From: Minisyncoccota bacterium | GTDB taxonomy: Bacteria; Patescibacteriota; Minisyncoccia; Phycocordibacterales; CAIJYI01 | Length of the DNA: 64,000 bases | Direction of reading: 5' to 3' | Assembly (NCBI GenBank): GCA_023229825.1 | Contig: JALNYN010000001.1 | Coordinates: forward strand, 14,422 to 78,421 | In this document: positions 10,939-58,350 of the stretch, one piece after another | Layout of the letters: every line of letters starts with the position of its first letter | Position numbering within the stretch: position 1 is the stretch's first letter | The notes under the pieces: model-generated | The model's input: only the letters and a program-made list of their open reading frames with translations | What the model was told of the DNA's origin: nothing | Database searches by the model: none | Program-made: the position numbers and the translations under genes

Positions 10939-11082
10939 TTGAAATTACAACATATATTTTAGAAAACAATCGTACCTGGACAATCGCGAAATTCCAAAAG
11001 AAAAACTTGCTGACAAAAGATGAAGCGGACGAGTTGATAAAAATGCTTGGTGAGATTATGAGTAAGGTGGTAAAATAGGGGT

Positions 11083-11472
11083 ATGAAGAATAAAACTCTA
11101 ATTGTGATATTGTTTATATCGTTAATTTTATTGGCAGGTACATTTTTAGTTTGTCCCACCCCAACCGATGTTTGTTTGAGATATGACGAACTTTCCGTTT
11201 TTCTGATTCTTTTTTCTGCCCCGGTATTCCTCCTGTCATTAATTCTCCTTTTTCTCCGAGAAGAAATTTTTCGTTCTTGGAAACATTTCGCTTATTGGTG
11301 GCTCCCGATTTCCGCTTTCTTCATTATGTTAGCACCATCAACTGATCGCGGAAGCTTTGATTTTGGTATGGGATTCGATAGGGAGGCGGTAACTTGGTTT
11401 TTTGCGGTCTTATTTTTCCTTATCTCCCTCATCCTCATCATCTACAAATCGATAAAACTGCGCGGAAAATAA
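11083..11472 (+). CDS. small multi-TM membrane protein, paralog 2 (same C-terminal IYKSIKLRGK tail)
   Basis: Tandem paralog of 10531-10938. Confidence 0.7.
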   Translation: MKNKTLIVILFISLILLAGTFLVCPTPTDVCLRYDELSVFLILFSAPVFLLSLILLFLREEIFRSWKHFAYWWLPISAFFIMLAPSTDRGSFDFGMGFDREAVTWFFAVLFFLISLILIIYKSIKLRGK

Positions 11473-11497
11473 TCTTATCACTTCATATTTAACCATC

Positions 11498-13505: not shown

Positions 13506-13512
13506 ACAGCCG

Positions 13513-13589
13513 TCGTCATCCCGGGCAACGACCCGGGATCCACGGTGAAATCGCCGGACGTGGATTCCGGGTCGCGGCCCGGAATGACG
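13513..13589. repeat. Family-B inverted pair (CGTCATCCCGGGCAACGACCCGGGATCCACGG / CCGGACGTGGATTCCGGGTCGCGGCCCGGAATGACG)
   Basis: Direct reading; in the adk-map spacer. Confidence 0.6.
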
Positions 13590-14400: not shown

Positions 14401-14449
14401 GTCCCCTAGGGCGGTCCTCGGTATTTTGCCGAGGACCGCCCTAGGGGAC
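14401..14449. repeat. REP1 palindrome copy 3, followed by a T-run: doubles as the map terminator
   Basis: GTCCCCTAGGGCGGTCCTCGG-TATTTTG-CCGAGGACCGCCCTAGGGGAC then tttttg. Confidence 0.8.
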
Positions 14450-14486
14450 TTTTTGTTTGCACAATTCGTCGAAATTCGCAAAAGGT

Positions 14487-14504
14487 TGTATAATAGAGCT
14501 CATG
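14487..14504 (+). promoter_or_regulatory. -10 TATAAT 9 nt before the ATG at 14502: candidate leaderless start
   Basis: ttgtataatagagctcATG. Confidence 0.4.
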
Positions 14505-17266: not shown

Positions 17267-17336
17267 GTATCAGGAAAAAGTATCAGTATCAGGGACGACA
17301 AACGTCATTCCGGCCAGCGAGCCGGAATCCACGTCG
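17267..17336. repeat. Family-E terminus (17267-17298) fused to a family-B unit (17301-17336)
   Basis: GGTATCAGGAAAAAGTATCAGTATCAGGGACGAC + CGTCATTCCGGCCAGCGAGCCGGAATCCACG. Confidence 0.6.
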
Positions 17337-17555
17337 GTGGCGTAAAAAACACAAACCTGCGTTCATTCGGCGGGGGTTTTTGTTGCATACGCCTTGTTTT
17401 TTGGTATACTGGGGCAATATTTCCGAGTAAAATGAAAAAGCACCGCGTAAGGACGTACCCTTTACGAAGTACTTTTTCGTGGTAATATAATTATAGCAAA
17501 TTGAGATTATTTTGTCCACAGAGCAGAGAGAGTAGCGTAAATATATTTCCACAAT

Positions 17556-17638
17556 CTCGTCATTCCGGACAGGGATCCGGAATCCACGGCGAAACAACTA
17601 CGAACGTGGATTCTGAATCAAGTTCAGAATGACGGAAT
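17556..17638. repeat. Family-B inverted pair
   Basis: CGTCATTCCGGACAGGGATCCGGAATCCACGG ... CGTGGATTCTGAATCAAGTTCAGAATGACGG. Confidence 0.55.
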
Positions 17639-18546: not shown

Positions 18547-21500
18547 ATGTACAAAAAGTTTTTGGAAAGCCCCATTCACCACAAGATTATTTTTGCAACC
18601 ATCGCTTTGGTGGTACTTTTGCTCCTCACTTTTGCGGGAATTTTTTATGCAAAAAAAGCGTTTACCTACCCCGCGCCTTCTTTCCCGAATTATTTTCGCA
18701 TGCCGACCGACCCGTCGCACATGAGAGGAGAAACAGACGGAACCGGAACACATTTTGCGATTACCGACAGCGAATATCTGAACATTACGCTTGATAGTAC
18801 AGAAACCGTTGATATGCGCCTCACTTCAATTCCGAAAGTGATCACGATGATGTTTGAGGCAACCACCACCGCAACCCGTTCGGCAAGCTCAGGGCAAGCA
18901 ACCGCTCAAATCACGCTCTCCGGCTTGGCATCAAACACAACCTACTACAAATACGAAGACGATTATCACCATCTCGCACAATTCACTTCCGACAACAACG
19001 GAGCGTATACGTATACGCAAGATATTTCCGTTCAACATTTCGTCTTCATTCAAACCGTAAAAAGCACAAAATTCATCGTGGACAACATCACAGGGGGCGA
19101 CTGTTCAACGATTGGAACTTGGAACGCGGGAACCAAAACATGTACGCTCACCCAAGACCTCACTGAAACCGTGCAAATAGACAGCGATGGCGTTACTTTT
19201 GACGGCAACGGACATAAAATAACGATAACGCCGGATTATACCGCCAATGGAGTATATATTTCCGGAAAAGCAAGTACGACAGTAAAGAATCTTACCGTCA
19301 ACGGCGCCTATGAGGGTATTTTTCTTTTTCTAAACAGCGGTGTCCGTGTTTCAAAAAATACTTTTACCGGTAATATGGACGGTATCTATCTCCGGTTCGG
19401 CGGCGATAACGCGATCAAAAGCAATGTCGTTAGCGATAATTATCGTAACGGAATTACCGTTTACGATTCAACCAACAACCAAATTCTTGAAAATACGGCG
19501 ATGGGAAATAATTATTCCGATTTCAATATCCAAGAAGATTATATCGGTTCCGCCATATGCGACAATATCATAACCGGCAACATCGGATTCGGCGGTCGTC
19601 CCATCGGTTTCTTCAATTCTCCAACGACATTAAACGGCGGTACATTTTCAGAGCTTATCCTCTGCGATGCCGACAGCTCTGACATAAGAAATGTGACGAT
19701 TAAAAGCTCTGACAATGGCTTTGGTGGCGGTGGTTTGCTCGCGTTTTATACTGACCATGCAAATTTCAACAATAGTACATCCAACGACAATATTCACGGC
19801 GTGCATTTACACAAATCTCATTCAAACATTTTTGAGAACGTTACCGTAATGCATGACGGTTACAATGTTTTGCTTGATAATTCCAACTCAAATATTCTAA
19901 AAAATATTTCTGCGGGCAGTGACGGATTCATTCAATTCACATTGGCGAATGATAACGAATTGGACGGAGCCACAATTGATGAATCAGCCGGCATTGGCTT
20001 TTATTACCAGAGTAATTCCAATCGCCTTCATAATTTCACCTTTCCCGACCAATGCCAAATATATACCGACAATAGAGGGAGTACCGGCAATTTGATTTAC
20101 AACAACAATTTTATCGGTGGGCAGTGTCAAATAACGGGAATGACCGGAAACTCTTTCAACCTCCCGAAACCGATTGGCGGGAATTACTGGAGCGATTATG
20201 ATACACCCGCGGAAGGATGCAGTGATGTGGACAGCGACGGCTTTTGTGATGCGCCGTATGTTTTTGTCGGCGCGCAAGACAATCTTCCGTGGACGAGACA
20301 GGATGGGTGGAAAGTCACGGTTGATATCGGACAAGCCGCCTCTGATTTGGCGAAACTTGTGGTTGACGGGCAATATCTTGGAGACGGCAATACGTGGGGC
20401 GGCAAAGGATGGGATCCCAATCAAGCTAAATATGTCACGCCGAGTGAGATTTTTGCCGGATATCATTTTTGGAATAATGCTATTTCGGTAAGAGCAATTG
20501 ATTTTGGAGCGGGAGTTGATTGTTCCGGACTGGTGCAGTGGTCATTCAACCGGTCGTTCGACCCCAATAAGAGTTTGTTGAAAAATGTGATTCGTTATGA
20601 CAACGCCGACGGTCAATTCAGGAATAACTCAGTTCCTCTCACTGAATTAGAACTTCGTCCGGGCGATTTGCTGTTTCTTGATAAAAACCTCAACGGCGTT
20701 AGGGATCATGTCGGGATGTTTGTGGGCGGTAACGCGGCGTCAGATGTGGTAGAATCGCATTCCCCGATACGTGGCATCATATCCTCTAGTAAAATTGAAT
20801 TTAAAACAAGAGATGGGTTTATAGAAAATCAAAGCATTAGACGAGTAGTTATTAGTCCCACGATAGCCGGACAGATTAATGCTGGTTCTCCGATTGATCT
20901 TACTGTGACCGATCCGGAAGGATTCACACTTACTCCCGAAACAGCAATTCAAACAGACGATGAGCTCCTCCGCGAAGTGCCGGGAGAACTTTACTATACG
21001 GAAAATGTTCTCGGATCAGACGGGCATCCGGAGGATATTATTTATTGGCCGGTTCAAAAAAACGGGGATTATCTCATTACGGTTACGGCCGAGCCCGATG
21101 CGGCGCCAACCGAAACCTTTGATTTGACTTTTATTTCCGGGACTGGCTCTACCACGATAGTAGCATCAAATATTCCAATCTCAGAAATACCTGCTCAATC
21201 TTACATAATCAGGTCTTCGGACGGCAATTTTGAAAAAGTTATTCCGGCAAAAATAAAAATCAAACCTGAAACGATGAATCTTGCGAGTGGCGGAATCATT
21301 ACCGTTGCACTCCAGTTTGACCCCGGTTTCGGTGTCGTGGTACATGATATCGCCACTTCCACCCTCCGGCTCGCAGGTGCACGGCCGATACGAACCGCTA
21401 TTGAAGTGGAGGAAAAGATACCGCCGCCTAAGAACGAAAAGACAAGCAAAAAACAAAAAGACCATGGAGAATATGAGGATGATGAAGAAATGGAAGTTTT

Positions 21501-21729
21501 GACTTTGGTCGCGAAGTTCCGCACGAAAGATTTGACCGGCGTTTCCGTCGGCAAGAAAGTTCCACTCGTGCTGACAGCCCGGCTCTCTGGTGGTATGAAG
21601 GCTGAAGGAACCGATACGGTTGAAATAATAAGCAAAGGCGCATTTTCAGTCTTATCTGATGCGTTTACGCAGCTTGCCGGCGTTTTGACGGCCACCCGGA
21701 AATTATTCGCTCAATTGCCAGGATTATAA
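18547..21729 (+). CDS. membrane-anchored cell-wall hydrolase: parallel beta-helix repeats fused to an NlpC/P60 domain plus C-terminal beta-rich domains
   Basis: N-terminal TM; beta-helix repeats (NxxGIxL, SxNxVxxN); NlpC/P60 Cys-His: GVDCSGLV ... DHVGMFVGG. Confidence 0.8.
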   Translation: MYKKFLESPIHHKIIFATIALVVLLLLTFAGIFYAKKAFTYPAPSFPNYFRMPTDPSHMRGETDGTGTHFAITDSEYLNITLDSTETVDMRLTSIPKVITMMFEATTTATRSASSGQATAQITLSGLASNTTYYKYEDDYHHLAQFTSDNNGAYTYTQDISVQHFVFIQTVKSTKFIVDNITGGDCSTIGTWNAGTKTCTLTQDLTETVQIDSDGVTFDGNGHKITITPDYTANGVYISGKASTTVKNLTVNGAYEGIFLFLNSGVRVSKNTFTGNMDGIYLRFGGDNAIKSNVVSDNYRNGITVYDSTNNQILENTAMGNNYSDFNIQEDYIGSAICDNIITGNIGFGGRPIGFFNSPTTLNGGTFSELILCDADSSDIRNVTIKSSDNGFGGGGLLAFYTDHANFNNSTSNDNIHGVHLHKSHSNIFENVTVMHDGYNVLLDNSNSNILKNISAGSDGFIQFTLANDNELDGATIDESAGIGFYYQSNSNRLHNFTFPDQCQIYTDNRGSTGNLIYNNNFIGGQCQITGMTGNSFNLPKPIGGNYWSDYDTPAEGCSDVDSDGFCDAPYVFVGAQDNLPWTRQDGWKVTVDIGQAASDLAKLVVDGQYLGDGNTWGGKGWDPNQAKYVTPSEIFAGYHFWNNAISVRAIDFGAGVDCSGLVQWSFNRSFDPNKSLLKNVIRYDNADGQFRNNSVPLTELELRPGDLLFLDKNLNGVRDHVGMFVGGNAASDVVESHSPIRGIISSSKIEFKTRDGFIENQSIRRVVISPTIAGQINAGSPIDLTVTDPEGFTLTPETAIQTDDELLREVPGELYYTENVLGSDGHPEDIIYWPVQKNGDYLITVTAEPDAAPTETFDLTFISGTGSTTIVASNIPISEIPAQSYIIRSSDGNFEKVIPAKIKIKPETMNLASGGIITVALQFDPGFGVVVHDIATSTLRLAGARPIRTAIEVEEKIPPPKNEKTSKKQKDHGEYEDDEEMEVLTLVAKFRTKDLTGVSVGKKVPLVLTARLSGGMKAEGTDTVEIISKGAFSVLSDAFTQLAGVLTATRKLFAQLPGL

Positions 21730-27950: not shown

Positions 27951-28070
27951 GCCGGACCGGGGTTGTACTCCGGTCCGAAACGTTTGGACGATTCACTGGT
28001 TTTTTCTATTAATACAAATTCGAAGATGAATTCCAAACGTCATGAACGGGAGTACAACTCCCGTCCGGCG
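27951..28070. repeat. Family-A inverted pair (CCGGGGTTGTACTCCGG-TCCGAAACGTTTGG ... CCAAACGTCATGAACGGGAGTACAACTCCCGTCCGGCG)
   Basis: Conserved loop GTACAAC with different stem sequences in different copies. Confidence 0.6.
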
Positions 28071-42539: not shown

Positions 42540-42702
42540 GGAAAAAAAGTTTGCATTTTGTTGCCGATTATTTAACTCTGCGCGTTCGCGCGGAGTTTTT
42601 TGTATTTTCCATGTTGTTATTTTAAAACAAAAATTTGCAGATTGAGCCTTTTTCCCATAGAATAGTGCAAAATGAAATTTTAATGAGTTTATCTGCAAAA
42701 AT

Positions 42703-45700
42703 ATGAAATCAAAATATGCATTTATTTTAGTCGTCGCTTCTCTTTTTTTCTTCGCGAACTTTGCTGACGCGAGAACGATCGGAGCGGTTTTGAACGGGAA
42801 ATACTTAAGCCCATCAGTGACGGTATTCGATATTGATGATAATAACAAAATTCTCGGAAATGTCACCCTTCCTCCCGGTCGCTTTTTCTATGCTTCGGGC
42901 GATGTATTTATCGCTAAAGCTCAAAATCAAACTGTTGCTTTTGTGACAACGAACGACAGAAAGGTTTTTGTTATTGACCTATCTTCCGATATTCCAAAAT
43001 TAGCTTCCGGAGTTAATCCCATTTTAATTTCCAACTCTGCAGGCGATATTACCATGAGTACGGATGGAGAATTTTTGATCGTTTCCGGCAGCACGTCGGG
43101 CGAACCGATCTCCATAATAAATATTGCATCAAGGCAAGAACTCGGTACTTTTTCAGGTGCAACAAATGTCAATTCTGTGGATATTTGTTCCGATGGATCC
43201 CTTTTGATGTCTTCTTCATCCGGAAACGTGCGGAGATTCACTATTAATAATGCAGGCGGAATTATCGACACAGGAGAGTTGCTTCCGGTCGTTAATCCAA
43301 GAAATGTCGTTTGCTCGCCGGATGGAAGAACTGGAATAATTATAAGTTCGAACCGCATTACCTCATTCCGTGTGTCGGGAATGACGCCAATAAGCAACAG
43401 ATCATTGTCGTACATGTTTCGCGGAATTTCCGGTGTTTTTAGCGCCTCCGGAGATAGATTTTTTGTTCGTGAATGTTTCAACCCGTTTCACGACGGAGAG
43501 ATAAAAGCGTTTGCTTATGATTCAAACTCCGGACAATTTGGCACTTCTCTTTTTACCATATCGGCGACAGAAACTAGCGAGGTGAGCGGTATTGAACAAC
43601 TCGCTGTTGATCCCGATGGAACTAGGCTATATGTACCATCAATGTATTACTCTGTAAGCATGTACGATGCGCACACCGGTTCATTTTTGTCATCATCGCC
43701 ATTTGGATTAATGTATTCAACAGGCATAGCGGTTGCAATGAAAACCGTTCAAAGCAATGTAACGATACTTGCGAATGCGAGCGTGACTGAAGATGACGGT
43801 ATAAATGATGCGAAAGGGGTTGCTGAAAAAACGAGCTTCAGCTTCGGTGTGCAATACAAAGGAATTGTACCTAATTCAGTTCGAGCAATTATCGAAAATA
43901 ATAATGGAACACTTATCGGACTCGAATTGTACGCAACGTCGACCGATTATGCGAATGGGGTTTTCTTTTCCAATTCGTCTACTTTCCCGAAAGGACAATA
44001 TTCTTACCGTTTTGAGGCGACCGCGGAAGGAAATACTTTAACCTTAGCGGGGGGAAATATTACCGCCGGTTATTCCAATGTGGCCTTTTTGCCGGGCATT
44101 AAAGCGAGCCGTCTTTTCAATCAAGGAGACGTACTTGAAGATCAGCTTTGGGAACCGAATTGGTGGTCGGACACGAACGAGCTTATGATGAATCCCGACG
44201 GTACGAGTGAAAATGAAAATATCTACACCAAAACCGATGAGTATCTTGGAACGATCGATCAAGCGAACGTACTTCCCGGATCTCTTTTGAGAGAAAACTT
44301 TTACGTAAGCTTCCTGGATTTCATGAATAGCATGAAAGAAAATGGTGAGATCGCGGACTGGAAATCTCTGCCGTATGACTGGCGGCTCGCATTTCCAAGA
44401 ATTTTAAATCAGGGGAACTCAACGGTGAACGGCAAGATATTTTACGATGACCGGTATGCAACCGATACGCCGTATATTTTGCAAGAAATACGAGCGCTTG
44501 CACAGTCTTCCGACACGGGAAAAGTGAATATTATCGGTCACTCAATGGGTGGGTTGCTTGCAAAGAAACTTCTTGTCGATCACGCAGACATTGCGAACAT
44601 GACCGATACGCTCATTCTGGTTGACTCTCCTCAGCTTGGAACCCCGCAAGCTGTTGCCACCATCCTTCACGGAACCAACGAAAATATTCCGAGCAGTTTC
44701 GGCCTCTTCAGCGACGCCGAGACAGGAAGAAGAGTGGCGCAAAACATGCCATCGGTGTACACGCTTTTGCCTTCGCGGGAATATGCGGAACGTGTCGAGG
44801 AAAGCGGTCTTGGATATTCCGCTCTCATTAAACAAGATGCCTCGCTTCAAAGCCTTGCGAATGACCCGCTTTTTGTTGGCGGCTCCGTTTTGGATTTTTA
44901 TCAAACGAAGTACGGTACGACGACCATTGCAACTTATGACGGAATGAAAGATTTTCTCGGAGGGAAAGACGGGCATCTTTCGGCTCCCGATAACGATATC
45001 ATTCACCCGAAACGAATTCAAATGGATATGCTCGCCGATGCGCAAGCGATACACGATGAAATTGACAACTGGACGCCGTCCGAAAAGATGCGCGTTGTTC
45101 AGATCGCCGGATGGGGAATCCCCGAAACGATTCGCGGATTGAATTACCGAGCAAAGCGGTCCTGTATCTGGAAACTTTGCACTGAACCGAAATTTGATGT
45201 TGAACCGCTTTTCACTTTTGACGGAGACGGGACGGTGACGCTCCCGAGCCAGACGGCGATGAATACCGAAACGTATTATGTGGATTTGAATTCGCATAAT
45301 TTCCTTTTAATAAAAGATCGTTCTCATGGTTCAGTTTTAGAAGTGGAAAGTGTCCGAAAACTTATTAATAATCTAGTTGAATATAAAGACAATCCTTCGG
45401 GTGGTTTAGAGTATATTAAAACAGATAAATCTCGGTTGGTTTCAGATAAAAAATTCATTCGACTCTCCCTTCACTCTCCCGTAAAAATTGACGTAACCGA
45501 CAAAAGCGGCAATCATCTGGGTATCTCTGAAAATTCAACTGCGGAAAAAATCGTTTACGATACTGAAATGCCCAACTCGTATTACGTGGAAATGGGAGAA
45601 GGAAAGTATCTCGGCTTTCCTCTCGAAACAGAGACTACCATTGATCTAGAGGGAACCGGGGAGGGAACTTTTACTCTTGAGATGGAACAATACCAAGGTG

Positions 45701-46113
45701 ACATACTTCAAGGAACGCAAACCTTCACCGATATTCCTGTGAGTCCGACGACCAGAGCGACTTTAATCGTAAATACGCTTGGTGATGCAAAAGAACTTGC
45801 GCTCGATCAAAACGGCGACGGCTCGATCGATTCAGTTGTGTTTACCGACGAGAATAAAGAAACAATAACGTTTCAAACTTTGGAAGACGCACTGCAAAAA
45901 CTTCCTGATCTACGGCCAGCGCTGTTAAACCAAGCTGAGACTGCGGAAAAACAATTCAATATAGGAAACTTCAAAGCAACGAATGCGCTTTTACTAGTTT
46001 TACAAAAAGAAATTCCTAAACTCTCTCAGGGCAATACGTCAAACGAGGAATATCTGAAGGTATTAGCGATTATCGATGTTCTTATTAAAACATCAGAAGA
46101 GAATATTCTGTAA
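42703..46113 (+). CDS. giant secreted LCAT/PGAP1-like lipase, paralog of 5951-10489 (different N-terminal beta-propeller-like region)
   Basis: Signal peptide; VNIIGHSMGGLLAKKL, SLPYDWRLAFP, GYSNVAFLPGIKASRLF; blocks collinear with the first paralog. Confidence 0.85.
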   Translation: MKSKYAFILVVASLFFFANFADARTIGAVLNGKYLSPSVTVFDIDDNNKILGNVTLPPGRFFYASGDVFIAKAQNQTVAFVTTNDRKVFVIDLSSDIPKLASGVNPILISNSAGDITMSTDGEFLIVSGSTSGEPISIINIASRQELGTFSGATNVNSVDICSDGSLLMSSSSGNVRRFTINNAGGIIDTGELLPVVNPRNVVCSPDGRTGIIISSNRITSFRVSGMTPISNRSLSYMFRGISGVFSASGDRFFVRECFNPFHDGEIKAFAYDSNSGQFGTSLFTISATETSEVSGIEQLAVDPDGTRLYVPSMYYSVSMYDAHTGSFLSSSPFGLMYSTGIAVAMKTVQSNVTILANASVTEDDGINDAKGVAEKTSFSFGVQYKGIVPNSVRAIIENNNGTLIGLELYATSTDYANGVFFSNSSTFPKGQYSYRFEATAEGNTLTLAGGNITAGYSNVAFLPGIKASRLFNQGDVLEDQLWEPNWWSDTNELMMNPDGTSENENIYTKTDEYLGTIDQANVLPGSLLRENFYVSFLDFMNSMKENGEIADWKSLPYDWRLAFPRILNQGNSTVNGKIFYDDRYATDTPYILQEIRALAQSSDTGKVNIIGHSMGGLLAKKLLVDHADIANMTDTLILVDSPQLGTPQAVATILHGTNENIPSSFGLFSDAETGRRVAQNMPSVYTLLPSREYAERVEESGLGYSALIKQDASLQSLANDPLFVGGSVLDFYQTKYGTTTIATYDGMKDFLGGKDGHLSAPDNDIIHPKRIQMDMLADAQAIHDEIDNWTPSEKMRVVQIAGWGIPETIRGLNYRAKRSCIWKLCTEPKFDVEPLFTFDGDGTVTLPSQTAMNTETYYVDLNSHNFLLIKDRSHGSVLEVESVRKLINNLVEYKDNPSGGLEYIKTDKSRLVSDKKFIRLSLHSPVKIDVTDKSGNHLGISENSTAEKIVYDTEMPNSYYVEMGEGKYLGFPLETETTIDLEGTGEGTFTLEMEQYQGDILQGTQTFTDIPVSPTTRATLIVNTLGDAKELALDQNGDGSIDSVVFTDENKETITFQTLEDALQKLPDLRPALLNQAETAEKQFNIGNFKATNALLLVLQKEIPKLSQGNTSNEEYLKVLAIIDVLIKTSEENIL

Positions 46114-46140
46114 AATGAAAGAGGGTGGTATAATAAAAAC

Positions 46141-46572
46141 ATGAACTACAAAAAACAAATTAAAATGGCATTTATCATTGCCTTCCTATTTTATCTTTTT
46201 CCGGTGTTCTCTCTTTATCGAGAAATGTTTCCTGACGGCGAATGTGAATTAAACCATAACGGCAATATATTACGATGTCTCTTTTTTGTGCTTTTGCCTG
46301 GCCTAGTTGCTTTATGGATGGTTGTGCTGATGTTTTTTCTCGTCGCGCTTTATTTTCTCAAAGAAGCCATCTTTCTCTCTTGGCGGAAGTTCGCGGTATG
46401 GTATCTCCCAATTGTTCTTGCTTTCACTTTCCTCATCGGTGGCGGATCGAACGGTTTCAATCCGGGCTACGGTTTTGATACCGAATCACTCACTTTCTTT
46501 TTCTCCGGTTTATTCGCATTAGTTTCGGTCATTCTCATTATCTATAAATCCATAAAATTAAGAGGAAAATAA
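46141..46572 (+). CDS. small membrane protein, paralog 3 (C-terminal ..ILIIYKSIKLRGK)
   Basis: Immediately downstream of lipase paralog 2, the same arrangement as 10531/11083 after lipase 1. Confidence 0.7.
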   Translation: MNYKKQIKMAFIIAFLFYLFPVFSLYREMFPDGECELNHNGNILRCLFFVLLPGLVALWMVVLMFFLVALYFLKEAIFLSWRKFAVWYLPIVLAFTFLIGGGSNGFNPGYGFDTESLTFFFSGLFALVSVILIIYKSIKLRGK

Positions 46573-46581
46573 TTGTTACCT

Positions 46582-46619
46582 CAACATAAAATGCCGGCTT
46601 ATGCGGGCATTTTATGTTG
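46582..46619 (+). terminator. rho-independent terminator
   Basis: CAACATAAAATGCCGGCTTATGCGGGCATTTTATGTTG. Confidence 0.75.
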
Positions 46620-46762: not shown

Positions 46763-47272
46763 ATGAATAAGAAATTTTATATTTCTGCAGTTGTTCTGTT
46801 TGCGTTTATCTTCGCGGGAAGTGCCTCTGCCTTTGCGGAAGGGAAGGGCGAGAAGATGAGCGAGCAGCACAGAAATAATGTCGCCAAGGTTGTGGAAGAA
46901 CTTGAGAAGGTCGCCAATAAAGACGGTGCGATCGGAGAAGAAGTGAAGACCGTGGCGCAAGAAGAAAAAGATACGGTCGCGGGGGTCTCGGAAAAAATGG
47001 AAAAAGTGGAGAGCCGAAACGGTTTCAAAACCTTTCTCATTGGATCGGACTATAAAAATTTGGGAGCGATCCGCAGCGAGATCGTGACCACGCAGAACCA
47101 TATCGATCGGCTGACGAAATCTTTGGAACGCGCCACGAGCACCGAAGCGAAAGCCGAACTTCAAGCGCAGATCGACAGTCTGAAGGGGATACAAACAAAA
47201 GTCGAAACTTTCGTGAAAGACCACGAAGGGAAATTCAGTTTGTTCGGATGGCTGGTGAAAATGTTTCAGTAA
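46763..47272 (+). CDS. secreted coiled-coil protein (signal peptide)
   Basis: MNKKFYISAVVLFAFIFAGSASAFA then charged heptad-rich sequence; terminator follows. Confidence 0.65.
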   Translation: MNKKFYISAVVLFAFIFAGSASAFAEGKGEKMSEQHRNNVAKVVEELEKVANKDGAIGEEVKTVAQEEKDTVAGVSEKMEKVESRNGFKTFLIGSDYKNLGAIRSEIVTTQNHIDRLTKSLERATSTEAKAELQAQIDSLKGIQTKVETFVKDHEGKFSLFGWLVKMFQ

Positions 47273-47289
47273 AATCTATACGCATCAAT

Positions 47290-47324
47290 AAAAATGATCC
47301 GCCTCGAGGCGGATCATTTTTTTG
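47290..47324 (+). terminator. rho-independent terminator
   Basis: AAAAATGATCCGCCTCGAGGCGGATCATTTTTTTG. Confidence 0.8.
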
Positions 47325-47401
47325 TGTGAGTGAGAAATTGACATTTTTAATATCATTGTGTATGATTATACAACCTTGTTCATTTTTTTGGAGTAGAAAG
47401 T

Positions 47402-47644
47402 ATGAATTTTCGCAAATCTGTTACGTCGCTTTTTAAAGACCATCCGCGTGAAATTCGTCTGGCAGCAAAGATCTTTTTGTTTTTGGGAATAATCATCATC
47501 ATATTCGTTCCCGCCGTCTTTTGTTATTTCTTCGAAATGTCACATCCTGAGATGCTTCTCATCTCGGTGCTGGTCGGCACAATATTGTTCGTGATCGGAT
47601 TTTATCACACTCTCGATACGATCGGCCGCGACGATAACGAGTAA
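47402..47644 (+). CDS. small two-TM membrane protein
   Basis: 80-aa ORF with RBS ggagtagaaagtATG; terminator at 47657-47692. Confidence 0.45.
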   Translation: MNFRKSVTSLFKDHPREIRLAAKIFLFLGIIIIIFVPAVFCYFFEMSHPEMLLISVLVGTILFVIGFYHTLDTIGRDDNE

Positions 47645-47824
47645 CCGATCTTCATACCCCCGCATCAGACGATGCGGGGTTTTATGCGGGGGAAAGGCGT
47701 CCTTTTTCTGAAATTTTTATCGATTGACAACTTCATGAAAAAATATTATAATGAAATCGATAAGTTATCAAATAGTACTGATAGCACAGTTCCTTAACAA
47801 TTGACTTGAATATAGGAGGGTCAA

Positions 47825-49027
47825 ATGAATAACGGCAAATTAATTCGTTTGCCCGGGAATCCTCTTTTGGAGGTGGGTAAAACATTTAGTACTGACGAAT
47901 TTCTCTCTTTTCTTTTTGATTTTTTCGCCACATTGTGGCTGACGCATTATATCGCGGCCGGAGGAGGGGAACATATCCTTGCCGCGGTGAACGCAATATT
48001 TAATGTAATATTTGGAGGTTGGATCATCGTAACCATCCCGCTCTTGTTCGCTCTAGTAGGTCCGGTATGCGAGAAGATCGGATTCTTCCCGAAACACATT
48101 TGGGATTCTTGCTGGGAACGATTTAAAGACAAAAAAGAGGGAAAAGCAAAAACTCGCGGATTCTACGCGAAAAAGGCGATGTCTCGGGGTTTCAAAAGCA
48201 TGGGTGAAGATATCGTCGTGCATGACCCTATATATGTGACGGCAATGTTTTTTGGCGTCAGCATGTTTCCTTGGATCCCTCCTTGGGTGATCTGTATTTT
48301 TTGTTTCCTGCTCGCGGTATTCATTGTTATGATACTTGAAGTGGGAATAAAAGAGGTTCTGCATAAGACGGCGAAAGTATTGCTCGTGAAGAAAGGTTTT
48401 GAAGAAGAACCTTACTACGAAGCGAGATTCCTCTTTGACGATGAAGAAAAGGCGAGGGAAGTCTTTGGCGAACTCGCGAAAAAATTCGTCCACAAAGGTG
48501 AAGACGAGATCTGGAAGATCCATTACCATGACCGATATTTTTCAAAAAAGGAATGGTATAACGGAAGGGTCGCCAAATTGAGAAGCCGAGACCGGCACTT
48601 ACCGAACGGCGAACCGATGCGGACTTGGCAGATCGTGTATACGTTGGCGAAGGAAGAATGGGGCGGTAAGACCGACCAGTTCAGGTATTTTATCTCTCTC
48701 AAGGAGAAAATGTATTATTTGGCGGAACATCCGGAACACCTGCATCAGCCCGACAACATTCCCGACAGAAGGGTGCGCGAGACCGTCAAAAAAATGGCGG
48801 AAAACGAGGTGCCTTTTGTGATCGAGTTCGAACGTTTCGTCGCTGACGATCCGGAATGCCTGCTCATTACGCTCGACGTGGTTAAAACCGAAGACTCTTA
48901 TTTAATAGAGATCAAGGCAAGACCGAAGAACAAAGCGATGATGCAGGAAGCCATGCAATACGCCATGCACTTCGGCGGCTTGACCGCAACAGACGGAAAG
49001 TATTCTCTTTTTGCAGAGACGGTATAA
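47825..49027 (+). CDS. hypothetical membrane protein with ~220-aa cytoplasmic domain
   Basis: RBS aggagggtcaaATG; TM helices then a charged domain; terminator at 49031-49061. Confidence 0.6.
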   Translation: MNNGKLIRLPGNPLLEVGKTFSTDEFLSFLFDFFATLWLTHYIAAGGGEHILAAVNAIFNVIFGGWIIVTIPLLFALVGPVCEKIGFFPKHIWDSCWERFKDKKEGKAKTRGFYAKKAMSRGFKSMGEDIVVHDPIYVTAMFFGVSMFPWIPPWVICIFCFLLAVFIVMILEVGIKEVLHKTAKVLLVKKGFEEEPYYEARFLFDDEEKAREVFGELAKKFVHKGEDEIWKIHYHDRYFSKKEWYNGRVAKLRSRDRHLPNGEPMRTWQIVYTLAKEEWGGKTDQFRYFISLKEKMYYLAEHPEHLHQPDNIPDRRVRETVKKMAENEVPFVIEFERFVADDPECLLITLDVVKTEDSYLIEIKARPKNKAMMQEAMQYAMHFGGLTATDGKYSLFAETV

Positions 49028-49293: not shown

Positions 49294-50490
49294 ATGAATT
49301 CCCCAAAAAAACCAACATATATAGACCTTTTTGCTGGATGCGGTGGTCTTTCTCTTGGCTTGTATCGTGCCGGATGGCACGGTCTTTTTGCAATTGAGAA
49401 GGATACGATGGCGTTCGGCACGCTTAAGCATAATTTGATTGACAAAAAAGAACATTTTACTTGGCCGGATTGGTTGCCTCAAAATGAACTTGAAATCAAA
49501 GACGTGCTATCTAAATACAAAAAAGAATTAAGCGAATTATCAGGAAAGGTTGATCTTGTCGTCGGAGGTCCTCCCTGTCAGGGGTTTTCAATGGCAGGAA
49601 AGCGCAATGAGGGCGACATGAGAAATAAACTTATCGATTCATATATCGATTTTGTAAAACTTGTTCGTCCAAGGATGATATTTTTCGAAAATGTCAAAGG
49701 TTTTACGGTAGGGTTTAAAAAGGGGGAAATCCGCGGGGATGCGTATTCGAAACATGTTATCAAATCATTAGGAGATTTAGGGTACAATGTTGACTGGAAA
49801 GTTCTCGATTTTTCTGAGTATGGCGTTCCGCAACGCCGGAAGCGATTTATTTTGGTCGGGGTTTTGGGTGGTGATGTTAATAAGTTTTTTGAACTGTTGA
49901 ATTTAAACCGAAAGCAATTTCTTTCAGATAATAAACTCTTGCAAAAGTGTACTTTGAAGGCGGCTCTTTCCGATTTATATCAAGCAAATGGGATCGTAGA
50001 CTCTCCTGATTCAAAAAACTTCAAAGCGGGGATTTATTCGTCACCCAAAAGTAATTATCAAAAATTAATGAGATCAGGGGGTGATATTCCAAAAATTCCC
50101 GATAGTCATCGCTTTGCCAAACACGGAGAAGAAACTGTTAAATTATTTCAAACTTTATTAAAAAAAGCAGAGAAAGGTAAACGGATTGACGGTGATGAAA
50201 GATTGAAGTATGGTTTGAAGAAACGAGGCATTACAGTCCTCGGAGAGGATCTTTCAAGCCCTACACTTACGACACATCCGGATGATTACGTTCATTATCT
50301 TGAGCCGAGAATTTTGACAGTGCGCGAATATGCTCGAATTCAGTCATTTCCGGATTGGTTTGAAATAAGAGGAAAATACACCACAGGTGGAAAACAGCGA
50401 GTCAAAGAAGTTCCGAGATATACTCAACTTGGGAATGCAATCCCTCCCCTGTTTGGTGAACAGGCGGGAAGAGTTCTTAAGAAGTTGTAG
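49294..50490 (+). CDS. DNA (cytosine-5)-methyltransferase
   Basis: Motif I DLFAGCGGLSLG, motif IV GGPPCQGFS, motif VI FFENVKGF, motif VIII region. Confidence 0.9.
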   Translation: MNSPKKPTYIDLFAGCGGLSLGLYRAGWHGLFAIEKDTMAFGTLKHNLIDKKEHFTWPDWLPQNELEIKDVLSKYKKELSELSGKVDLVVGGPPCQGFSMAGKRNEGDMRNKLIDSYIDFVKLVRPRMIFFENVKGFTVGFKKGEIRGDAYSKHVIKSLGDLGYNVDWKVLDFSEYGVPQRRKRFILVGVLGGDVNKFFELLNLNRKQFLSDNKLLQKCTLKAALSDLYQANGIVDSPDSKNFKAGIYSSPKSNYQKLMRSGGDIPKIPDSHRFAKHGEETVKLFQTLLKKAEKGKRIDGDERLKYGLKKRGITVLGEDLSSPTLTTHPDDYVHYLEPRILTVREYARIQSFPDWFEIRGKYTTGGKQRVKEVPRYTQLGNAIPPLFGEQAGRVLKKL

Positions 50491-50492
50491 AC

Positions 50493-52772
50493 ATGAAAAA
50501 TAAAATACAGTTCAAAATCAGTTCGGGTCTTAAAAACCTGATAGGGAGAGAATTGATAACCGATGAATATATCGCGATTTTTGAACTTGTAAAAAATTCC
50601 TATGATGCACGCGCGACAAAAGTGACGATTGCATTTGAAAACATTACGGATCCGGAAAAATCGAAAATTATTATTTCGGACAACGGTAAGGGGATGAATT
50701 ATGATGACCTGATTGATAAATGGCTTTTTGTGGCTTATTCTGCAAAAAAAGAAGGAACGGAAGACGCGGGAGAATATAGAGATAAAATTAATTCAAAACG
50801 GCTTTATGCCGGAGCGAAAGGTGTCGGTCGTTTCTCTTGTGATCGTTTGGGATCAGAATTGAATTTAATAACCACAAAAAACACCAAAAATGCTAAAACA
50901 GAAAATCTTTTTGTAAACTGGACTGATTTTGAAAAGGATGCAGAAAAAATCTTTGCAAAAGTTGATGTTCAACACGAGACTCTTAAAGAAAATCCATACA
51001 AAATCAACCACGGTACCGTTCTGGAAATCTGCGGACTTCGTGATAAATGGGATAGAAAAAGAATATTGAGTTTAAAAAGGTCACTCGCTAAATTGATCAA
51101 CCCTAATCAGGGAAATGATAATTCGAAATTTTCTATTGAAATATTGGCTTCCGAGGAGAAAAACGAAGACAGGAAGCAAAAAAAAGAAAGGGATTGTGTA
51201 AACGGATATGTTACTAATTTTCTCTTTGAAACTCTTGGGTTAAAAACAACTCAAATTATGGCGGAGATATCTCCGGATGGGAATATCATCATCACTACAC
51301 TAAAAGACCGCGGTCGTTTAATATATAAATTAACAGAAAATAACCCCTTTCAGGGGCTTTTGACTGATATAAAAATTCACCTTTTTCATTTAAACAGAAA
51401 ATCAAAAGCAAATTTTACCAAAACGATGGGCATGGAACCAGTAAAATATGGTTCGATTTTTCTCTATAAAAATGGTTTTCGAATATACCCTTTTGGTGAG
51501 GATGGTGAGGATTTGTTAGGAATAGAAAGAAGGAAACAGCAAGGGTATAATCGGTTTCTCGGAACTCGGGATCTTATGGGAAGAATTGAAATTGACGGGA
51601 AGAATGAGGAGTTAAAAGAAACTACCAGCCGAGATGGCGGTCTCATGAAAAATAAAAACTATGAGGCTCTCTTAAAATTTTTTAATGAGTATGCGCTTAG
51701 AAGACTTGAGAAATATGTCGTGGACGTCATCAAGTGGGGAGATGATACAAAATCCGGTCAATTGGCTCTTGAGCCCGAGGATGTAAAAACACAAATTTCC
51801 GACATTGTTGCTGGTATAACAAGTCCGAAAGGTATAATAAATCTTGAGTACGATAAAAATTTCTTAGATATTATTTCTGAGAGTCAAGAGAAAAGTCTGC
51901 CAAAAATTGCGAAAAACTTTGCACGTATTGCTGAAGAAAGTGGCAATAAGGAGTTACAGAAAGAAGCGGCGCGTGCAGTGCTCCAAGTTAAAGAGTTGCT
52001 TGCTGCAAAAGTCGAGGCGGAAAAAGGTGAAAAAAATGCTCAGGAGTTAATTAAATCGACAGAGCAAAAGTTGGAAGAAGAAATCAGTGAAAAACTTTTT
52101 CTTAAGTCTGTTCTATCGACAGATACAGAAGAGGTTATCGTGTTGCAACATCAGATTGATATATCAACAGAAGCAATCAAGGATGGTGTTGGTGATTTGC
52201 TTTATATGGTCAACCACAAGGTTCCAAAAGAAAAAATGCTGGAACCGATAGAAAGAATACGATTTGAAGCAGAAAAAATATCTTCAATTGTAAAATTTTC
52301 AACTAAAGCCAATTTTAGTCTTCAGGTTCCCGAGATAACAGCAGACCTCGTTTCTTTTGTTAAGGAATATATTGAAAATGTTTACAGGGAAGATGAAGCC
52401 ATAAAAACCAATCGACCCTATGTTATTTTTAAGGTAATAACAAATGGAGCCAAATTTTCGTGCAAGTTTAGACCGCTCGAAGTGATAATGGTGATAGACA
52501 ACCTTTTTAGTAATTCGATGAAACACAACGCTCGAAATATTACTATTTCGTGTACTAATCATAATGATGTGTTAGAAATAAAAGTGAAAGACGACGGAAC
52601 GGGGATAGAAGAGCGAATTTTCTCTAAAGTTTTTAATCTTGGTTTTACAACGACAGATGGATCTGGAATCGGACTTTATCACGTAAAGCAAATTATTGAA
52701 AAAATGCACGGAAAAGTTGAAGTTGGTCGGACTGAAAAAGGAGCTGAGATTATAATTCGAATAAAAAAATGA
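50493..52772 (+). CDS. protein with two GHKL ATPase modules: an N-terminal MutL/MORC/Hsp90-like one and a C-terminal histidine-kinase-like one
   Basis: N-terminal ELVKNSYDA...ISDNGKGM; C-terminal N-box IDNLFSNSMKHN, G1 DDGTGI, G2 GSGIGLYHVKQI; starts 3 nt after the methyltransferase stop. Confidence 0.7.
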   Translation: MKNKIQFKISSGLKNLIGRELITDEYIAIFELVKNSYDARATKVTIAFENITDPEKSKIIISDNGKGMNYDDLIDKWLFVAYSAKKEGTEDAGEYRDKINSKRLYAGAKGVGRFSCDRLGSELNLITTKNTKNAKTENLFVNWTDFEKDAEKIFAKVDVQHETLKENPYKINHGTVLEICGLRDKWDRKRILSLKRSLAKLINPNQGNDNSKFSIEILASEEKNEDRKQKKERDCVNGYVTNFLFETLGLKTTQIMAEISPDGNIIITTLKDRGRLIYKLTENNPFQGLLTDIKIHLFHLNRKSKANFTKTMGMEPVKYGSIFLYKNGFRIYPFGEDGEDLLGIERRKQQGYNRFLGTRDLMGRIEIDGKNEELKETTSRDGGLMKNKNYEALLKFFNEYALRRLEKYVVDVIKWGDDTKSGQLALEPEDVKTQISDIVAGITSPKGIINLEYDKNFLDIISESQEKSLPKIAKNFARIAEESGNKELQKEAARAVLQVKELLAAKVEAEKGEKNAQELIKSTEQKLEEEISEKLFLKSVLSTDTEEVIVLQHQIDISTEAIKDGVGDLLYMVNHKVPKEKMLEPIERIRFEAEKISSIVKFSTKANFSLQVPEITADLVSFVKEYIENVYREDEAIKTNRPYVIFKVITNGAKFSCKFRPLEVIMVIDNLFSNSMKHNARNITISCTNHNDVLEIKVKDDGTGIEERIFSKVFNLGFTTTDGSGIGLYHVKQIIEKMHGKVEVGRTEKGAEIIIRIKK

Positions 52773-53746
52773 GATTAAAATACAAAATTTTATGGTTTGA
52801 GGATGACTCAGAATTTCTTGAAAAAAGACTCGTTCCACGAATAGAGAAATATTTAAGTGAAGGATTAGGATTTGATTCCGAAATTGTTCATAAAACAAGC
52901 GGTACAAATGTTGATGCTCTTGTTTCTCGTGAAGAATACGATCTTATTGTTACCGATTTAAATCTTACGCAAGGGAAAGACGAAATCGGTCAAAAAATTA
53001 TTGAGAAAGTTCGGCTTCAGAAAATTTTAACCGATGTGCTTCTTTATTCGAGTTCACCACGTGCTATAAAAGAAATAAAAGAAAAAAATCCAGGGATAGA
53101 AAGAATTTCTTTTGCCTCTGGTCGTGCGGCGATATATGATAAACTATGCGAAATCATTTTTTTGACTGTTAGAAAAGTTCAGGATGTTAATAATTTAAGG
53201 GGAATGGTTATTACTGAGGCGATTGATATTGAAACGAGGATTCGAGATTTATTAGTTGAGAAATTTGAAGAATTAGACGCGGATGAACTTGAAAAACTCA
53301 GACAAAAAAAAATTAAACATAAAAAAAATAATGTTGATAAGTTAAAAAAAAGTGTTGCGAAAAGTGTGTCTCAGCTGGTTGAAGGATTGTTTACTTTTTC
53401 TGAGCTCCACGACGAATTAATGGGAATGATAGGGGAAGCTATTTCTGAAACGAAACGGGTACTTTGTGATCCAAGAAAGGCTAAGTCAACAGATCCAAAG
53501 TTAATTAAATTAAAAAAATTAGCATTTTTACGGGATGAATTACAAAAAATGAAATCAGACGTAATTCATCTTAGAAATGATATGGCACATGCGAAGGCTG
53601 AAAGACATCCTACGACAGGACGACCAGTTTTAACGAGCATAATTAGCGGAAAAAAACAACATTTTGACGATACTAAGTGTATAAAAATAAGGAAAGCTAT
53701 ATTGAGCCATTTCCAAAATATTGAGGAAATTGCGAAGCACTTATAA
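52769..53746 (+). CDS. receiver (REC)-like domain protein; the C-terminal helical domain carries an Rx4H motif (RNDMAH), possibly HEPN-like
   Basis: ILWFEDD ... DLIVTDLNL acidic-pocket and phospho-Asp pattern; ATGA overlap with the upstream gene. Confidence 0.55.
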   Translation: MRLKYKILWFEDDSEFLEKRLVPRIEKYLSEGLGFDSEIVHKTSGTNVDALVSREEYDLIVTDLNLTQGKDEIGQKIIEKVRLQKILTDVLLYSSSPRAIKEIKEKNPGIERISFASGRAAIYDKLCEIIFLTVRKVQDVNNLRGMVITEAIDIETRIRDLLVEKFEELDADELEKLRQKKIKHKKNNVDKLKKSVAKSVSQLVEGLFTFSELHDELMGMIGEAISETKRVLCDPRKAKSTDPKLIKLKKLAFLRDELQKMKSDVIHLRNDMAHAKAERHPTTGRPVLTSIISGKKQHFDDTKCIKIRKAILSHFQNIEEIAKHL

Positions 53747-56394: not shown

Positions 56395-58350
56395 ATGAAA
56401 GAAACAAAAAAAGACAAAAATTTAAATAATAATGAGGAGGAAATGAAGCCTCAGAAAAATAATAAGCCGAAACTTCCCGATATCAGTCCTTCAAAACGGT
56501 TTTTTACCAACATCGGCGGATCTCTGCTTATTTTTTTCGTGCTGATCACTCTCTATTCATTCGTTTCGGGCGAACAAGCAAAGAAACCGGACGAGATCAC
56601 TCTGACGCAGCTGGCTTCCTATGTGAAAAAAGGGGAAGTGAAAGCGGTGACGATCGACGGTGAAAAACTTACCGTTGACCTGAAGAATAAACAGCAAAAA
56701 GAGGCGAAAAAAGAATTGGAAAATTCGCTTTCTCAGTCGCTCGTCAATTACGGCGTCAGTCCGGAACAGATCTCTGGCGTTCAGCTCAAAATCGTCGATG
56801 GCACGGGATTTTGGTATTGGTTTATGAATTTGGCACCGATCTTGATCCCCGTCATTTTCATCCTGCTTTTTTTCTGGATCATCACGCGGCAAGTGAAAGG
56901 CGCGGGCGTGCAGGCATTTACTTTTGGGCAATCGAAAGCGCGCATCATCGATCCTGATGATCAAAATCAGCTCGTGACATTTAAAGATGTTGCGGGAGTG
57001 AAAGAAGCGAAAGAAGAACTGCTGGAGATCGTCGACTTCCTGAAAAATCCGAAAAAATTCTTGGACATCGGTGCGAGGATCCCGAAAGGCGTGATACTGA
57101 TGGGTGCGCCGGGAACGGGGAAGACGCTGCTTGCTCGCGCGGTTGCGGGCGAAGCGCACGTACCATTCTTCCATCTGTCGGGTTCGGAATTCGTCGAGAT
57201 GTTCGTCGGTGTGGGAGCTTCCCGCGTGCGCGATCTTTTCAAGATGGCGAAAAAAATGGCGCCCGCTATCATATTTATCGACGAGATCGACGCGGTCGGA
57301 CGCGTGCGCGGTACCGGTGTTGGAGGAGGGAATGACGAACGCGAACAGACACTCAACCAGATATTGGTGGAGATGGACGGGTTCGAACCGAATGAAAAAG
57401 TTATTGTCATCGCCGCGACGAATCGTCCCGATGTGCTCGATCCCGCACTCCTTCGTCCCGGACGTTTTGATCGGCGCGTTACCCTCGACCTGCCTGATCT
57501 CGAAGATCGCGAAGAGATCTTGAAAATTTACGCGCGCAAAAAACCGTTTGCGGAAGATGTGAACTTGCGGACCCTCGCCGAACGAACTCCCGGATTCTCC
57601 GGTGCCGATCTGTATTCGCTTATGAATGAAGGCGCGATCCTTGCCGCCCGCGAAGCGCGCAAAAAAGTCGCGCAGTTCGATCTTATCCGTTCCATTGAAA
57701 AGGTCATGCTCGGACCTGAACGCAAAAGCCATCTGCTTTCCAAAGACGAAAAGAAGATCACCGCCTATCACGAAGTCGGACACGCGCTCGTCGCTTCCGT
57801 GCTTCCTCTCGCTGATCCGGTTCAAAAAGTTTCGATCATTTCCCGAGGACACGCCGCCGGCTATACGCTTACGCTCCCGCTCGAAGAAAGAAAATTGCAG
57901 ACCAAAAAAGAATTTCTCGATGATATTGCGAAAGCGCTCGGAGGATATTCCGCAGAAAAATTAATATTCGGAGATATCACGACGGGACCGTCGAATGACT
58001 TGCAGGTTGCGACTGCGCTCGCGAGGAATATGGTCACGCGCTGGGGAATGTCCGACAAGATAGGACCGGTTGCGCTCGAAGATCCGTCAGGGAAAGTTAT
58101 TTACGGACGCGGGATCGGCGAGAAAGAATATTCCGAACAGGTATCCGCGCTGGTTGATGAGGAAGTGTCAGCGATCATGAACGAAGGTTTGAAAAGAGCG
58201 AACGAAGTGCTGGAAACGCATCGAAAAGCCCTCGATATGATCTCGGCGGAACTTATCCGCGTGGAAACGATAGAACACAAAGAATTTGAAAATCTCTTGA
58301 TCGCGAATGGCATCGTACCGAAGAAAAAAATAGAAGAGGAGGTTAAATAA
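56395..58350 (+). CDS. ftsH: ATP-dependent zinc metalloprotease FtsH
   Basis: AAA Walker [17 protein letters not shown] region, HEVGHALV zinc site, N-terminal TM. Confidence 0.93.

Follow-up and report, generated by a model that had tools for sequence, protein, structure and literature searches.

A predicted secreted hydrolase of the LCAT/LPLA2 fold with exchangeable N-terminal modules and a linked membrane protein gene in Patescibacteria

Background

LCAT (PDB 4XWG) and the lysosomal phospholipase A2 LPLA2 (group XV PLA2; PDB 4X90), both of Pfam family PF02450, have acyltransferase as well as phospholipase activity. Antibacterial lipases, for their part, are produced together with immunity proteins whose genes lie next to theirs, often in several copies (PMC10730906, PMC4832377). 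Two described examples are Tle4 (PA1510; PDB 4R1D), a GXSXG lipase and type VI secretion system (T6SS) effector paired with the immunity protein Tli4 (PMC4832377), and TslA of the Staphylococcus aureus type VII secretion system (T7SS), an extracellularly acting phospholipase A from a bacterium without an outer membrane, whose adjacent TilA immunity genes vary in number (PMC10730906). Here we analyze a locus in a 64,000-nucleotide stretch of DNA from a Minisyncoccota bacterium of the Patescibacteriota (positions 14,422 to 78,421 of the forward strand of contig JALNYN010000001.1, assembly GCA_023229825.1; hereafter the window), in which the gene P2 encodes a multi-domain hydrolase with an N-terminal beta-propeller and is followed by the gene of a small four-helix membrane protein.

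A large part of bacterial diversity falls within the Patescibacteria, of which the bacterium studied here is an ultrasmall, symbiotic member. The group is reported to lack lipid synthesis and to be rich in lysolipids, which are thought to derive from neighboring cells via phospholipase A-type breakdown (PMC7242380); it has been proposed that secreted phospholipases serve in attacks on hosts (PMC8080830), and the mechanisms of lipid uptake and breakdown in the group have been stated to be unidentified (PMC11665869). Literature searches on LCAT or Tle4 in combination with the Candidate Phyla Radiation (CPR) or Patescibacteria found no prior description of such enzymes, and a paper on the activated-sludge secretome held nothing specific. 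The component folds and the enzyme superfamily of P2 are already known, and neither its fold nor its chemistry is surprising; what we did not find described in the literature searched is the Patescibacteria-wide cassette, its unannotated family of membrane partners, and the extensive exchange of N-terminal modules together with a unique propeller fusion. We consider it reasonably probable that P2 is a secreted phospholipase A/acyltransferase whose exchangeable modules target surfaces and which has a membrane partner of its own, likely a protective one. The export signal, domain order, catalytic triad, fold, modularity and gene linkage on which this proposal builds are well supported by sequence comparisons and predicted structures.

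Results and discussion

P2 and its paralog share a core of the LCAT/LPLA2 fold

The window holds a second, larger hydrolase, P1, and BLASTP of the two paralogs yields a sole aligned block, in which residues 346-1043 of P2 match residues 665-1349 of P1 (36% identity, E 4e-106). A preliminary description of this DNA had claimed a hydrolase core collinear between the two proteins on the basis of four motifs, all of which are present in P2 (GYSNVAFLPGI at 456-466, DWKSLPYDWRLAF at 552-564, IIGHSMGG at 610-617, and SPQLGTPQA at 642-650), with collinear counterparts in P1 at 775-785, 858-870, 916-923 and 949-957. The core is indeed shared, but its extent had been drawn too narrowly, as the common block begins at a beta-sandwich domain upstream of the hydrolase. 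Beyond the block the C-terminal tails differ, that of P2 (1044-1136) being helical and that of P1 (1350-1512) giving no alignment.

Across 42 sequences (P2 346-1136, P1 and 40 homologs), Ser614 (in GHSMGG), Asp842 (in DGDGTV) and His875 are invariant, which provides the GXSXG nucleophile elbow and the Ser-Asp-His triad of the LCAT/LPLA2 family. Both paralogs score above the gathering cutoff of Pfam LCAT (47.7 bits for P2 and 28.0 bits for P1, cutoff 21), P2 additionally has a PGAP1-like Pfam hit, and, when PDB sequences are searched by profile, lysosomal phospholipase A2 is retrieved and its YDWR, HSMG and GDGTV motifs line up with those of the core. The AlphaFold2 (AF2) model of the core (predicted local distance difference test, pLDDT, 89; predicted template modeling score, pTM, 0.88) comprises a beta-sandwich, an alpha/beta-hydrolase with cap, a second beta-sandwich and a helical tail, and the predicted hydrolase-plus-cap fold can be superposed on LPLA2/LCAT. 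Searched with Foldseek, the core model retrieves Tle4 as the top match (E 2e-8) and LCAT with a template modeling (TM) score TMt of 0.59; in the structural comparison Tle4 was the second-best match. The first beta-sandwich matches a module of xanthanase 6FHJ (profile E 9e-7), and Foldseek likewise returns 6FHJ and the carbohydrate-binding module (CBM) family CBM21. The triad, the profile hits in the PDB, the AF2 model, the Foldseek matches and the Pfam LCAT score together make membership of P2 in the LCAT/LPLA2 fold family well supported at the level of profiles and predicted models. P2 nevertheless differs from LPLA2 and LCAT in several respects, as it is bacterial, only ~16% identical, much larger (propeller, two beta-sandwiches, helical tail), and paired with a membrane-protein gene.

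With Tle4 the predicted P2 model shares a structurally similar GXSXG alpha/beta-hydrolase, and the adjacent small gene could serve self-protection, as in the Tle4 pair. Membership of the Tle4 effector family is, however, not supported, because P2 has a Sec signal peptide (of the cleavable type), no T6SS context and a neighbor unrelated to Tli4. No T6SS families were found among the P2 neighbors within 10 kb on either side or among the large open reading frames (ORFs) of the window that were scanned; the neighbor is a four-helix integral membrane protein, whereas Tli4 is periplasmic, and the N-terminal modules of the P2 family are variable, unlike Tle4. TslA resembles P2 in that its enzyme domain is joined to a separate non-catalytic module, an analogy for which we claim no homology, but it has T7SS helical targeting domains, and TilA is a DUF576 lipoprotein and not a polytopic membrane protein. 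By analogy with the enzymes of its fold, P2 may have phospholipase A or O-acyltransferase activity on glycerophospholipids.

The N-terminal module of P2 is a predicted beta-propeller

The N-terminus of P2 begins with a predicted signal peptide (aa 1-23), which is the only hydrophobic segment of the protein by hydropathy, and which around its cleavage site can be aligned with signal peptides from stand-alone homologs of the propeller. Residues 24-345 form an all-beta AF2 model of ~26 strands (pLDDT 90, pTM 0.90), whose best PDB matches in Foldseek are 1L0Q, a YVTN propeller of an archaeal S-layer protein (TMq 0.77), and 3U4Y (Dtox_1751; TM 0.80-0.82); compared with such solved propellers, the predicted model has the seven-bladed YVTN-type fold. 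The beta-propeller-like character attributed to this region beforehand from its repeats is thus upheld, and the motifs in question, STDGEFL (119-125), SPDG (205-208) and DPDGTRLY (303-310), are a recurring blade signature. Against the curated repeat models of Pfam and NCBIfam, hits stayed below threshold (WD40 20.5 bits, cutoff 27; Lactonase 16.2, cutoff 21.7; hydrazine synthase beta 18.5, cutoff 560). P2 24-345 is therefore like the YVTN propellers (1L0Q, 3U4Y and the proteins that JGI names 'YncE') in fold, at TM 0.77-0.82, and in having secreted homologs, and differs from them in its sub-threshold scores and in its fusion to a lipase.

A dedicated search with residues 24-345 found 13 end-to-end homologs (32-45% identity), all of them secreted and stand-alone; several carry RTX repeats at the C-terminus, and several are named 'DNA-binding beta-propeller fold protein YncE' by JGI. 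When the search was extended by profile to 1.84 billion representatives, 902 propeller relatives at E<=1e-30 were recovered, stand-alone or inside giant proteins, with RTX, TSP3, cadherin-like, Big_9 and papain-like protease modules as partners; a lipase core beside the propeller occurs in P2 alone among the best 146 of these relatives. Judged from these architectures, the propeller is therefore a promiscuous extracellular module, and no second case of its fusion to this lipase has so far turned up in the sequences searched. One relative, P0177 (1535 aa), fuses the same propeller family to a papain-family cysteine protease and cadherin-like domains, so that different secreted enzymes make use of this propeller as a module. 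Another propeller homolog lies on one short contig together with transposases.

N-terminal modules are exchanged on a conserved core across the family

The 41 homologs of P2 cover only 60-71% of it, corresponding to the core, and every organism-named lipase homolog belongs to the Patescibacteria. Our census, which is bounded by the word-index search used to make it, comprises 42 lipases and 119 small membrane proteins. Across 40 family members the region ahead of the core measures ~47-678 aa, in most cases starts with a signal-peptide-like N-terminus, and falls by all-against-all BLAST into at least 16 unrelated groups, the propeller of P2 being a singleton; precomputed Pfam hits identify parallel beta-helix/NosD, DUF642, LamG and PD40/DPPIV-type domains among the modules. 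At least eight N-terminal types occur inside the clade with 53-66% core identity to P2, and types A-D are present in both the P1-like and the P2-like core subclades. In these comparisons the N-terminal type therefore does not follow core similarity, which is what one would expect of repeated module exchange.

Between the two paralogs of the window, the N-terminal regions show no significant BLASTP match, and so nothing marks them as homologous. The earlier proposal that ~330 N-terminal residues had been replaced stands as regards the replacement, with the size corrected to 345 aa in P2 versus 664 aa in P1, and the domain swapping that it envisaged on a conserved catalytic module holds well beyond this pair, extending to 40 family members and their many N-terminal groups. 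The N-terminus of P1 clusters with homologs that carry PF13229 Beta_helix and is probably a parallel beta-helix, although P1 itself has only a sub-threshold parallel-beta-helix repeat hit; self-BLAST detected no internal repeats in this region, and a motif FTSIKDD..GDTNGDG recurs in it by eye. The exchange may serve targeting or binding specificity, as had been suggested, by analogy with the propeller family elsewhere, which sits in secreted or surface proteins alongside the RTX, TSP3, cadherin-like and Big_9 modules.

Several side observations concern rearrangement of the cassettes. Two short ORFs, at 9817-10191 in locus L003 and 8996-9373 in L006, correspond to C-terminal lipase tails of the P2 type and the P1 type, respectively, and lie between or after small membrane genes; the tail found in L006 is fused to the enzyme in P1. 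These ORFs look like remnants of duplication or recombination of units made of a lipase 3' end and a membrane gene, and such separate fragments suggest that the cassettes rearrange. Directly upstream of P1 in the window lies a 231-aa ORF (5153-5848), an IS200/RAYT-type tyrosine transposase by eye only (RAYT, repetitive extragenic palindrome (REP)-associated tyrosine transposase), flanked at 5079-5122 and 5828-5871 by 44-nt perfect-palindrome repeats (CCCTAGGGCGGTCCTCGG...CCGAGGACCGCCCTAGGG), a third copy of which is at 14403-14446. A homolog of this ORF adjoins the small membrane gene in L013 (818-1573). It may belong to a system of REP/RAYT type, through which the cassette could become more prone to rearrangement.

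A family of small membrane proteins is linked to the lipases

The small protein encoded next to P2 is predicted by hydropathy to have four helices. In its predicted topology both the N-terminus and a basic C-tail face inward; the first outer loop holds a conserved cysteine pair, helix 3 is preceded by a WxxFAxWxxP segment, the second outer loop is Gly-rich, and Ser129 and Ile133 lie in helix 4. The family conserves the cysteine pair C35/C46, W81 (100%), F84, S129 and I133. A profile search gathered 119 clusters of 98-198 aa, without a Pfam domain or informative name and, where an organism is named, from Patescibacteria, and no credible match to the family was found in Pfam, NCBIfam, PHROGs, PADLOC or, by profile sequence search, the PDB. 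Two such genes follow P1 and one follows P2. The three paralogs are 35-41% identical overall and yet end in the same 13 residues, ILIIYKSIKLRGK, while the DNA under this tail is only 73-74% identical among them; recent gene conversion is ruled out by that divergence, and the tail peptide is therefore under selection.

The linkage between the two genes is tight in both directions. One or two small genes lie immediately downstream on the same strand in 16 of the 17 lipase loci that have downstream sequence, and, starting from the small gene in species-representative genomes, a lipase is immediately upstream in 10 of 14 loci (all Patescibacteria), with three at a contig edge and one orphan, or in 10 of the 11 that are testable. 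The arrangement agrees with toxin-immunity linkage in that each linked locus has one or two adjacent small genes and that one further copy stands as an orphan (L012). It does not have the layout of polymorphic toxins, in which a constant N-terminal trafficking region precedes a variable C-terminal toxin; in the P2 family this order is reversed.

The order of small membrane gene(s), GH57-like gene, adenylate kinase and methionine aminopeptidase (identities by eye from translations) is found in the window at 10531-12709 and recurs in two other Paceibacterota/Parcubacteria genomes (L010, 108-784 and 2119-3531; L013, 350-814 and 1601-2869). The L010 and L013 contigs start exactly at the small membrane gene, which may reflect a tendency of assemblies to break off within the repetitive lipase gene.

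Proposed mechanism and alternative readings

In the mechanism that we propose, P2 would leave the cell via its Sec signal peptide and work outside on membranes of glycerophospholipids, as a phospholipase A, an acyltransferase or both, like LPLA2, LCAT and Tle4. The N-terminal module would dock the enzyme onto a particular surface, i.e. the envelope of a host or neighbor cell, so that swapping the module would retarget the same enzyme, and the benefit would lie in the breach of host or prey membranes and the release of fatty acids and lysolipids. The putatively co-transcribed four-helix protein would be a dedicated partner, most likely one that shields the producer's own exposed membrane in an immunity-like role, since antibacterial lipases come with adjacent, often multi-copy immunity genes; it may alternatively serve in docking of the enzyme or in lipid uptake. 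If correct, this would open a way into how episymbionts recognize hosts and attack membranes, add a new family to the immunity or partner proteins of membranes, and provide a natural example of enzyme retargeting via module exchange, in which exchangeable surface-binding modules may encode host specificity. The locus is a concrete, clonable and testable candidate for the question of how symbionts attack hosts and obtain lipids; should these functional readings fail, it would represent an ordinary secreted multi-domain esterase family.

Several points weigh against this proposal. Every functional claim for the cassette builds on homology and predicted structure, LCAT-fold and PGAP1-like enzymes deacylate non-phospholipid substrates too, and no ligand has been identified for the propeller. 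The lack of lipid synthesis is a group-level report set here beside the genome data of one 64-kb window, and the family census has the reach of its word-index search. The linkage has an exception on each side, namely L008, the most distant lipase homolog, which has no small gene, and L012, where the small gene has no lipase. Conserved positions of the small protein lie mainly in the predicted cytoplasmic-face segment and transmembrane helix 4, and the protein is unrelated to the lipase immunity proteins already known (Tli4, TilA), which are binders of the soluble or lipoprotein kind.

The position of these conserved residues bears directly on the strongest rival, in which an LCAT-like transacylase/phospholipase at the producer's own surface processes captured host lipids and the four-helix protein acts as a dock, importer, flippase or acyl acceptor. 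We regard such lipid salvage as a real but minor possibility. Strong conservation within the membrane and on the cytoplasmic face (W81, F84, S129, I133 and the basic tail) suits transport or docking better than a toxin-binding surface, the fold match of P2 is to enzymes with both acyltransferase and phospholipase activity, the lipase and the small gene are tightly coupled, and an uptake route would fit a group whose own is unknown and whose membranes are enriched in lysolipids (PMC11665869, PMC7242380). On the other hand, a transporter would be expected to be larger than a four-helix protein of 130-150 aa, which is also unlike any known transporter or flippase, P2 is without an evident anchor or interaction motif, and the tandem and orphan copies of the small gene behave like immunity genes. 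A bolder version, to which we give somewhat less credence still, would make the cassette the missing lipid-acquisition system of Patescibacteria, in which the secreted enzyme strips host acyl chains or lysolipids, the N-terminal module sets the host range, and the partner imports the products or protects; if true, it would explain the lysolipid-rich membranes and the missing lipid biosynthesis genes of the group.

The same tandem and orphan copies can also be taken to mean that the cassette is a competition toxin and nothing else, i.e. a Sec-secreted analog of Tle4-type phospholipases aimed at competitors, with the small protein as cognate immunity and the N-terminal variation as an arms race over receptor recognition. 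We judge this unlikely, in spite of Tle4 being the top Foldseek hit and second-best structural match, the PGAP1-like Pfam hit of P2, the one or two adjacent small genes, and the precedent of lipase-immunity pairs of T6SS and T7SS (PMC4832377, PMC10730906), given that there is no T6SS/T7SS context, so that delivery would need diffusion or contact, and that the order of variable N-terminus and constant enzyme is opposite to that of classic polymorphic toxins. It also overlaps with the reading of host attack preferred here, because for an obligate episymbiont 'competitor' and 'host' are inseparable on present data. The PGAP1-like hit can equally be counted toward a role in envelope housekeeping, where P2 would be an esterase/deacylase on the cell's own wall, surface polymers or lipoproteins, its N-terminal domains would be structural parts of a surface layer that play no part in targeting, and the small protein would be an unrelated neighbor; the best propeller match, from an archaeal S-layer protein, and the CBM-like beta-sandwiches, which suggest glycan contacts, point the same way, but rapid N-terminal turnover and two to three paralogous cassettes per genome are atypical of housekeeping and the small-gene linkage is too consistent for an incidental neighbor, which makes this role very improbable. 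That the propeller-lipase fusion is an artefact of assembly or a decaying gene is next to negligible, since, although it is a singleton architecture in all searches and GC content at third codon positions is modestly lower in the propeller segment than in the core (0.386 vs 0.454), a chimera is ruled out by the identical 1136-aa protein with the same flanking genes on independently assembled ENA and Logan contigs (and in NCBI and JGI records), and the uninterrupted ORF encodes a signal peptide, keeps every invariant core residue and yields a propeller model of high confidence.

Locus layout and genomic neighborhood

The features of the cassette and of its paralog are collected in Table 1. P2 is identical to the NCBI entry 'hypothetical protein WCT49_00900, Candidatus Paceibacterota bacterium'. 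With hairpins on both flanks and a promoter-like site, P2 and the small membrane gene look like one transcription unit, the signals being of consensus level: promoter-like sites in the region are not more numerous than in shuffled sequence, which makes the one at 42634-42663 weak evidence, and the downstream hairpin has no canonical T-run and escaped the consensus terminator scan.

Table 1. Features of the P2 cassette and of the paralogous P1 cassette (positions in the window).
Feature	Position	Strand	Basis
P1, paralogous 1512-aa hydrolase with a different N-terminal region of 664 aa	5951..10489	+	BLASTP, Pfam
Small membrane protein paralog, 135 aa, 3' of P1	10531..10938	+	
Second small membrane protein paralog, 129 aa, 3' of P1	11083..11472	+	
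Terminator-like hairpin upstream of P2	42574..42597		consensus scan
Promoter-like site TTTGCA-18-TAGAAT, between the upstream hairpin and the P2 start codon	42634..42663	+	consensus match only
P2, predicted 1136-aa secreted multi-domain LCAT/LPLA2-fold hydrolase	42703..46113	+	ORF listing and library searches
Predicted signal peptide, P2 aa 1-23 (MKSKYAFILVVASLFFFANFADA, followed by RT)	42703..42771	+	read from sequence
Predicted YVTN/YncE-type seven-bladed beta-propeller, P2 aa 24-345, swapped N-terminal module	42772..43737	+	AF2, Foldseek, homologs
First beta-sandwich, P2 aa ~355-455, opens the core common to P1	43765..44067	+	AF2, profile, Foldseek
Alpha/beta-hydrolase with cap, LCAT/LPLA2 fold, P2 aa ~456-905	44068..45417	+	
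Ser614 codon, nucleophile in GHSMGG	44542..44544	+	invariant in 42 aligned sequences; aligned to LPLA2 AHSMG
Asp842 codon, in DGDGTV	45226..45228	+	invariant (42 sequences); aligned to LPLA2 GDGTV
His875 codon	45325..45327	+	invariant (42 sequences)
Second beta-sandwich, P2 aa ~917-1047, closes the block common to P1	45451..45843	+	AF2 core-model strands 572-702
C-terminal helical tail, P2 aa ~1049-1136, in P2 only as compared with P1	45847..46110	+	AF2 core-model helices 704-790
Small four-helix membrane protein, 143 aa, 27 nt 3' of P2	46141..46572	+	unannotated Patescibacteria family
Strong hairpin directly 3' of the small gene, possible terminator	46583..46618	+	minimum free energy -27.7 kcal/mol (folded 81 nt), z -4.4

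Around P1 the window encodes a 1116-aa PG_binding_1 protein (1594-4944), a 934-aa VirD4/TraG-like coupling ATPase (14457-17261) and a 1060-aa protein with NosD/beta-helix and NlpC/P60 domains (18547-21729). The first and the last of these are likely surface proteins, and the presence of such very large proteins suggests a surface/attack gene neighborhood around P1. Upstream of P2, at a distance of 2.7 kb and on the opposite strand, is a gene of the fatty-acid hydroxylase/sterol desaturase family (PF04116; 39187-40020, minus strand), a lipid-modifying enzyme in an organism whose group is reported to lack lipid synthesis. Downstream, the ORFs at 46763-49027 have no detectable relation to the cassette; they are followed at 49294-53746 by three genes of low GC content (0.35-0.40), the last two overlapping, for a DNA methylase (398 aa), a HATPase_c_3 protein (759 aa) and a protein of unknown function (325 aa), which probably form a restriction-modification or defense-like island. 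Finally, two families of intergenic repeats with hairpin character are scattered through the window, D3 at 28-62, 468-502, 934-968, 27958-27992 and 57805-57839, and D6 at 965-1004, 13507-13546, 17296-17335 and 17551-17590.

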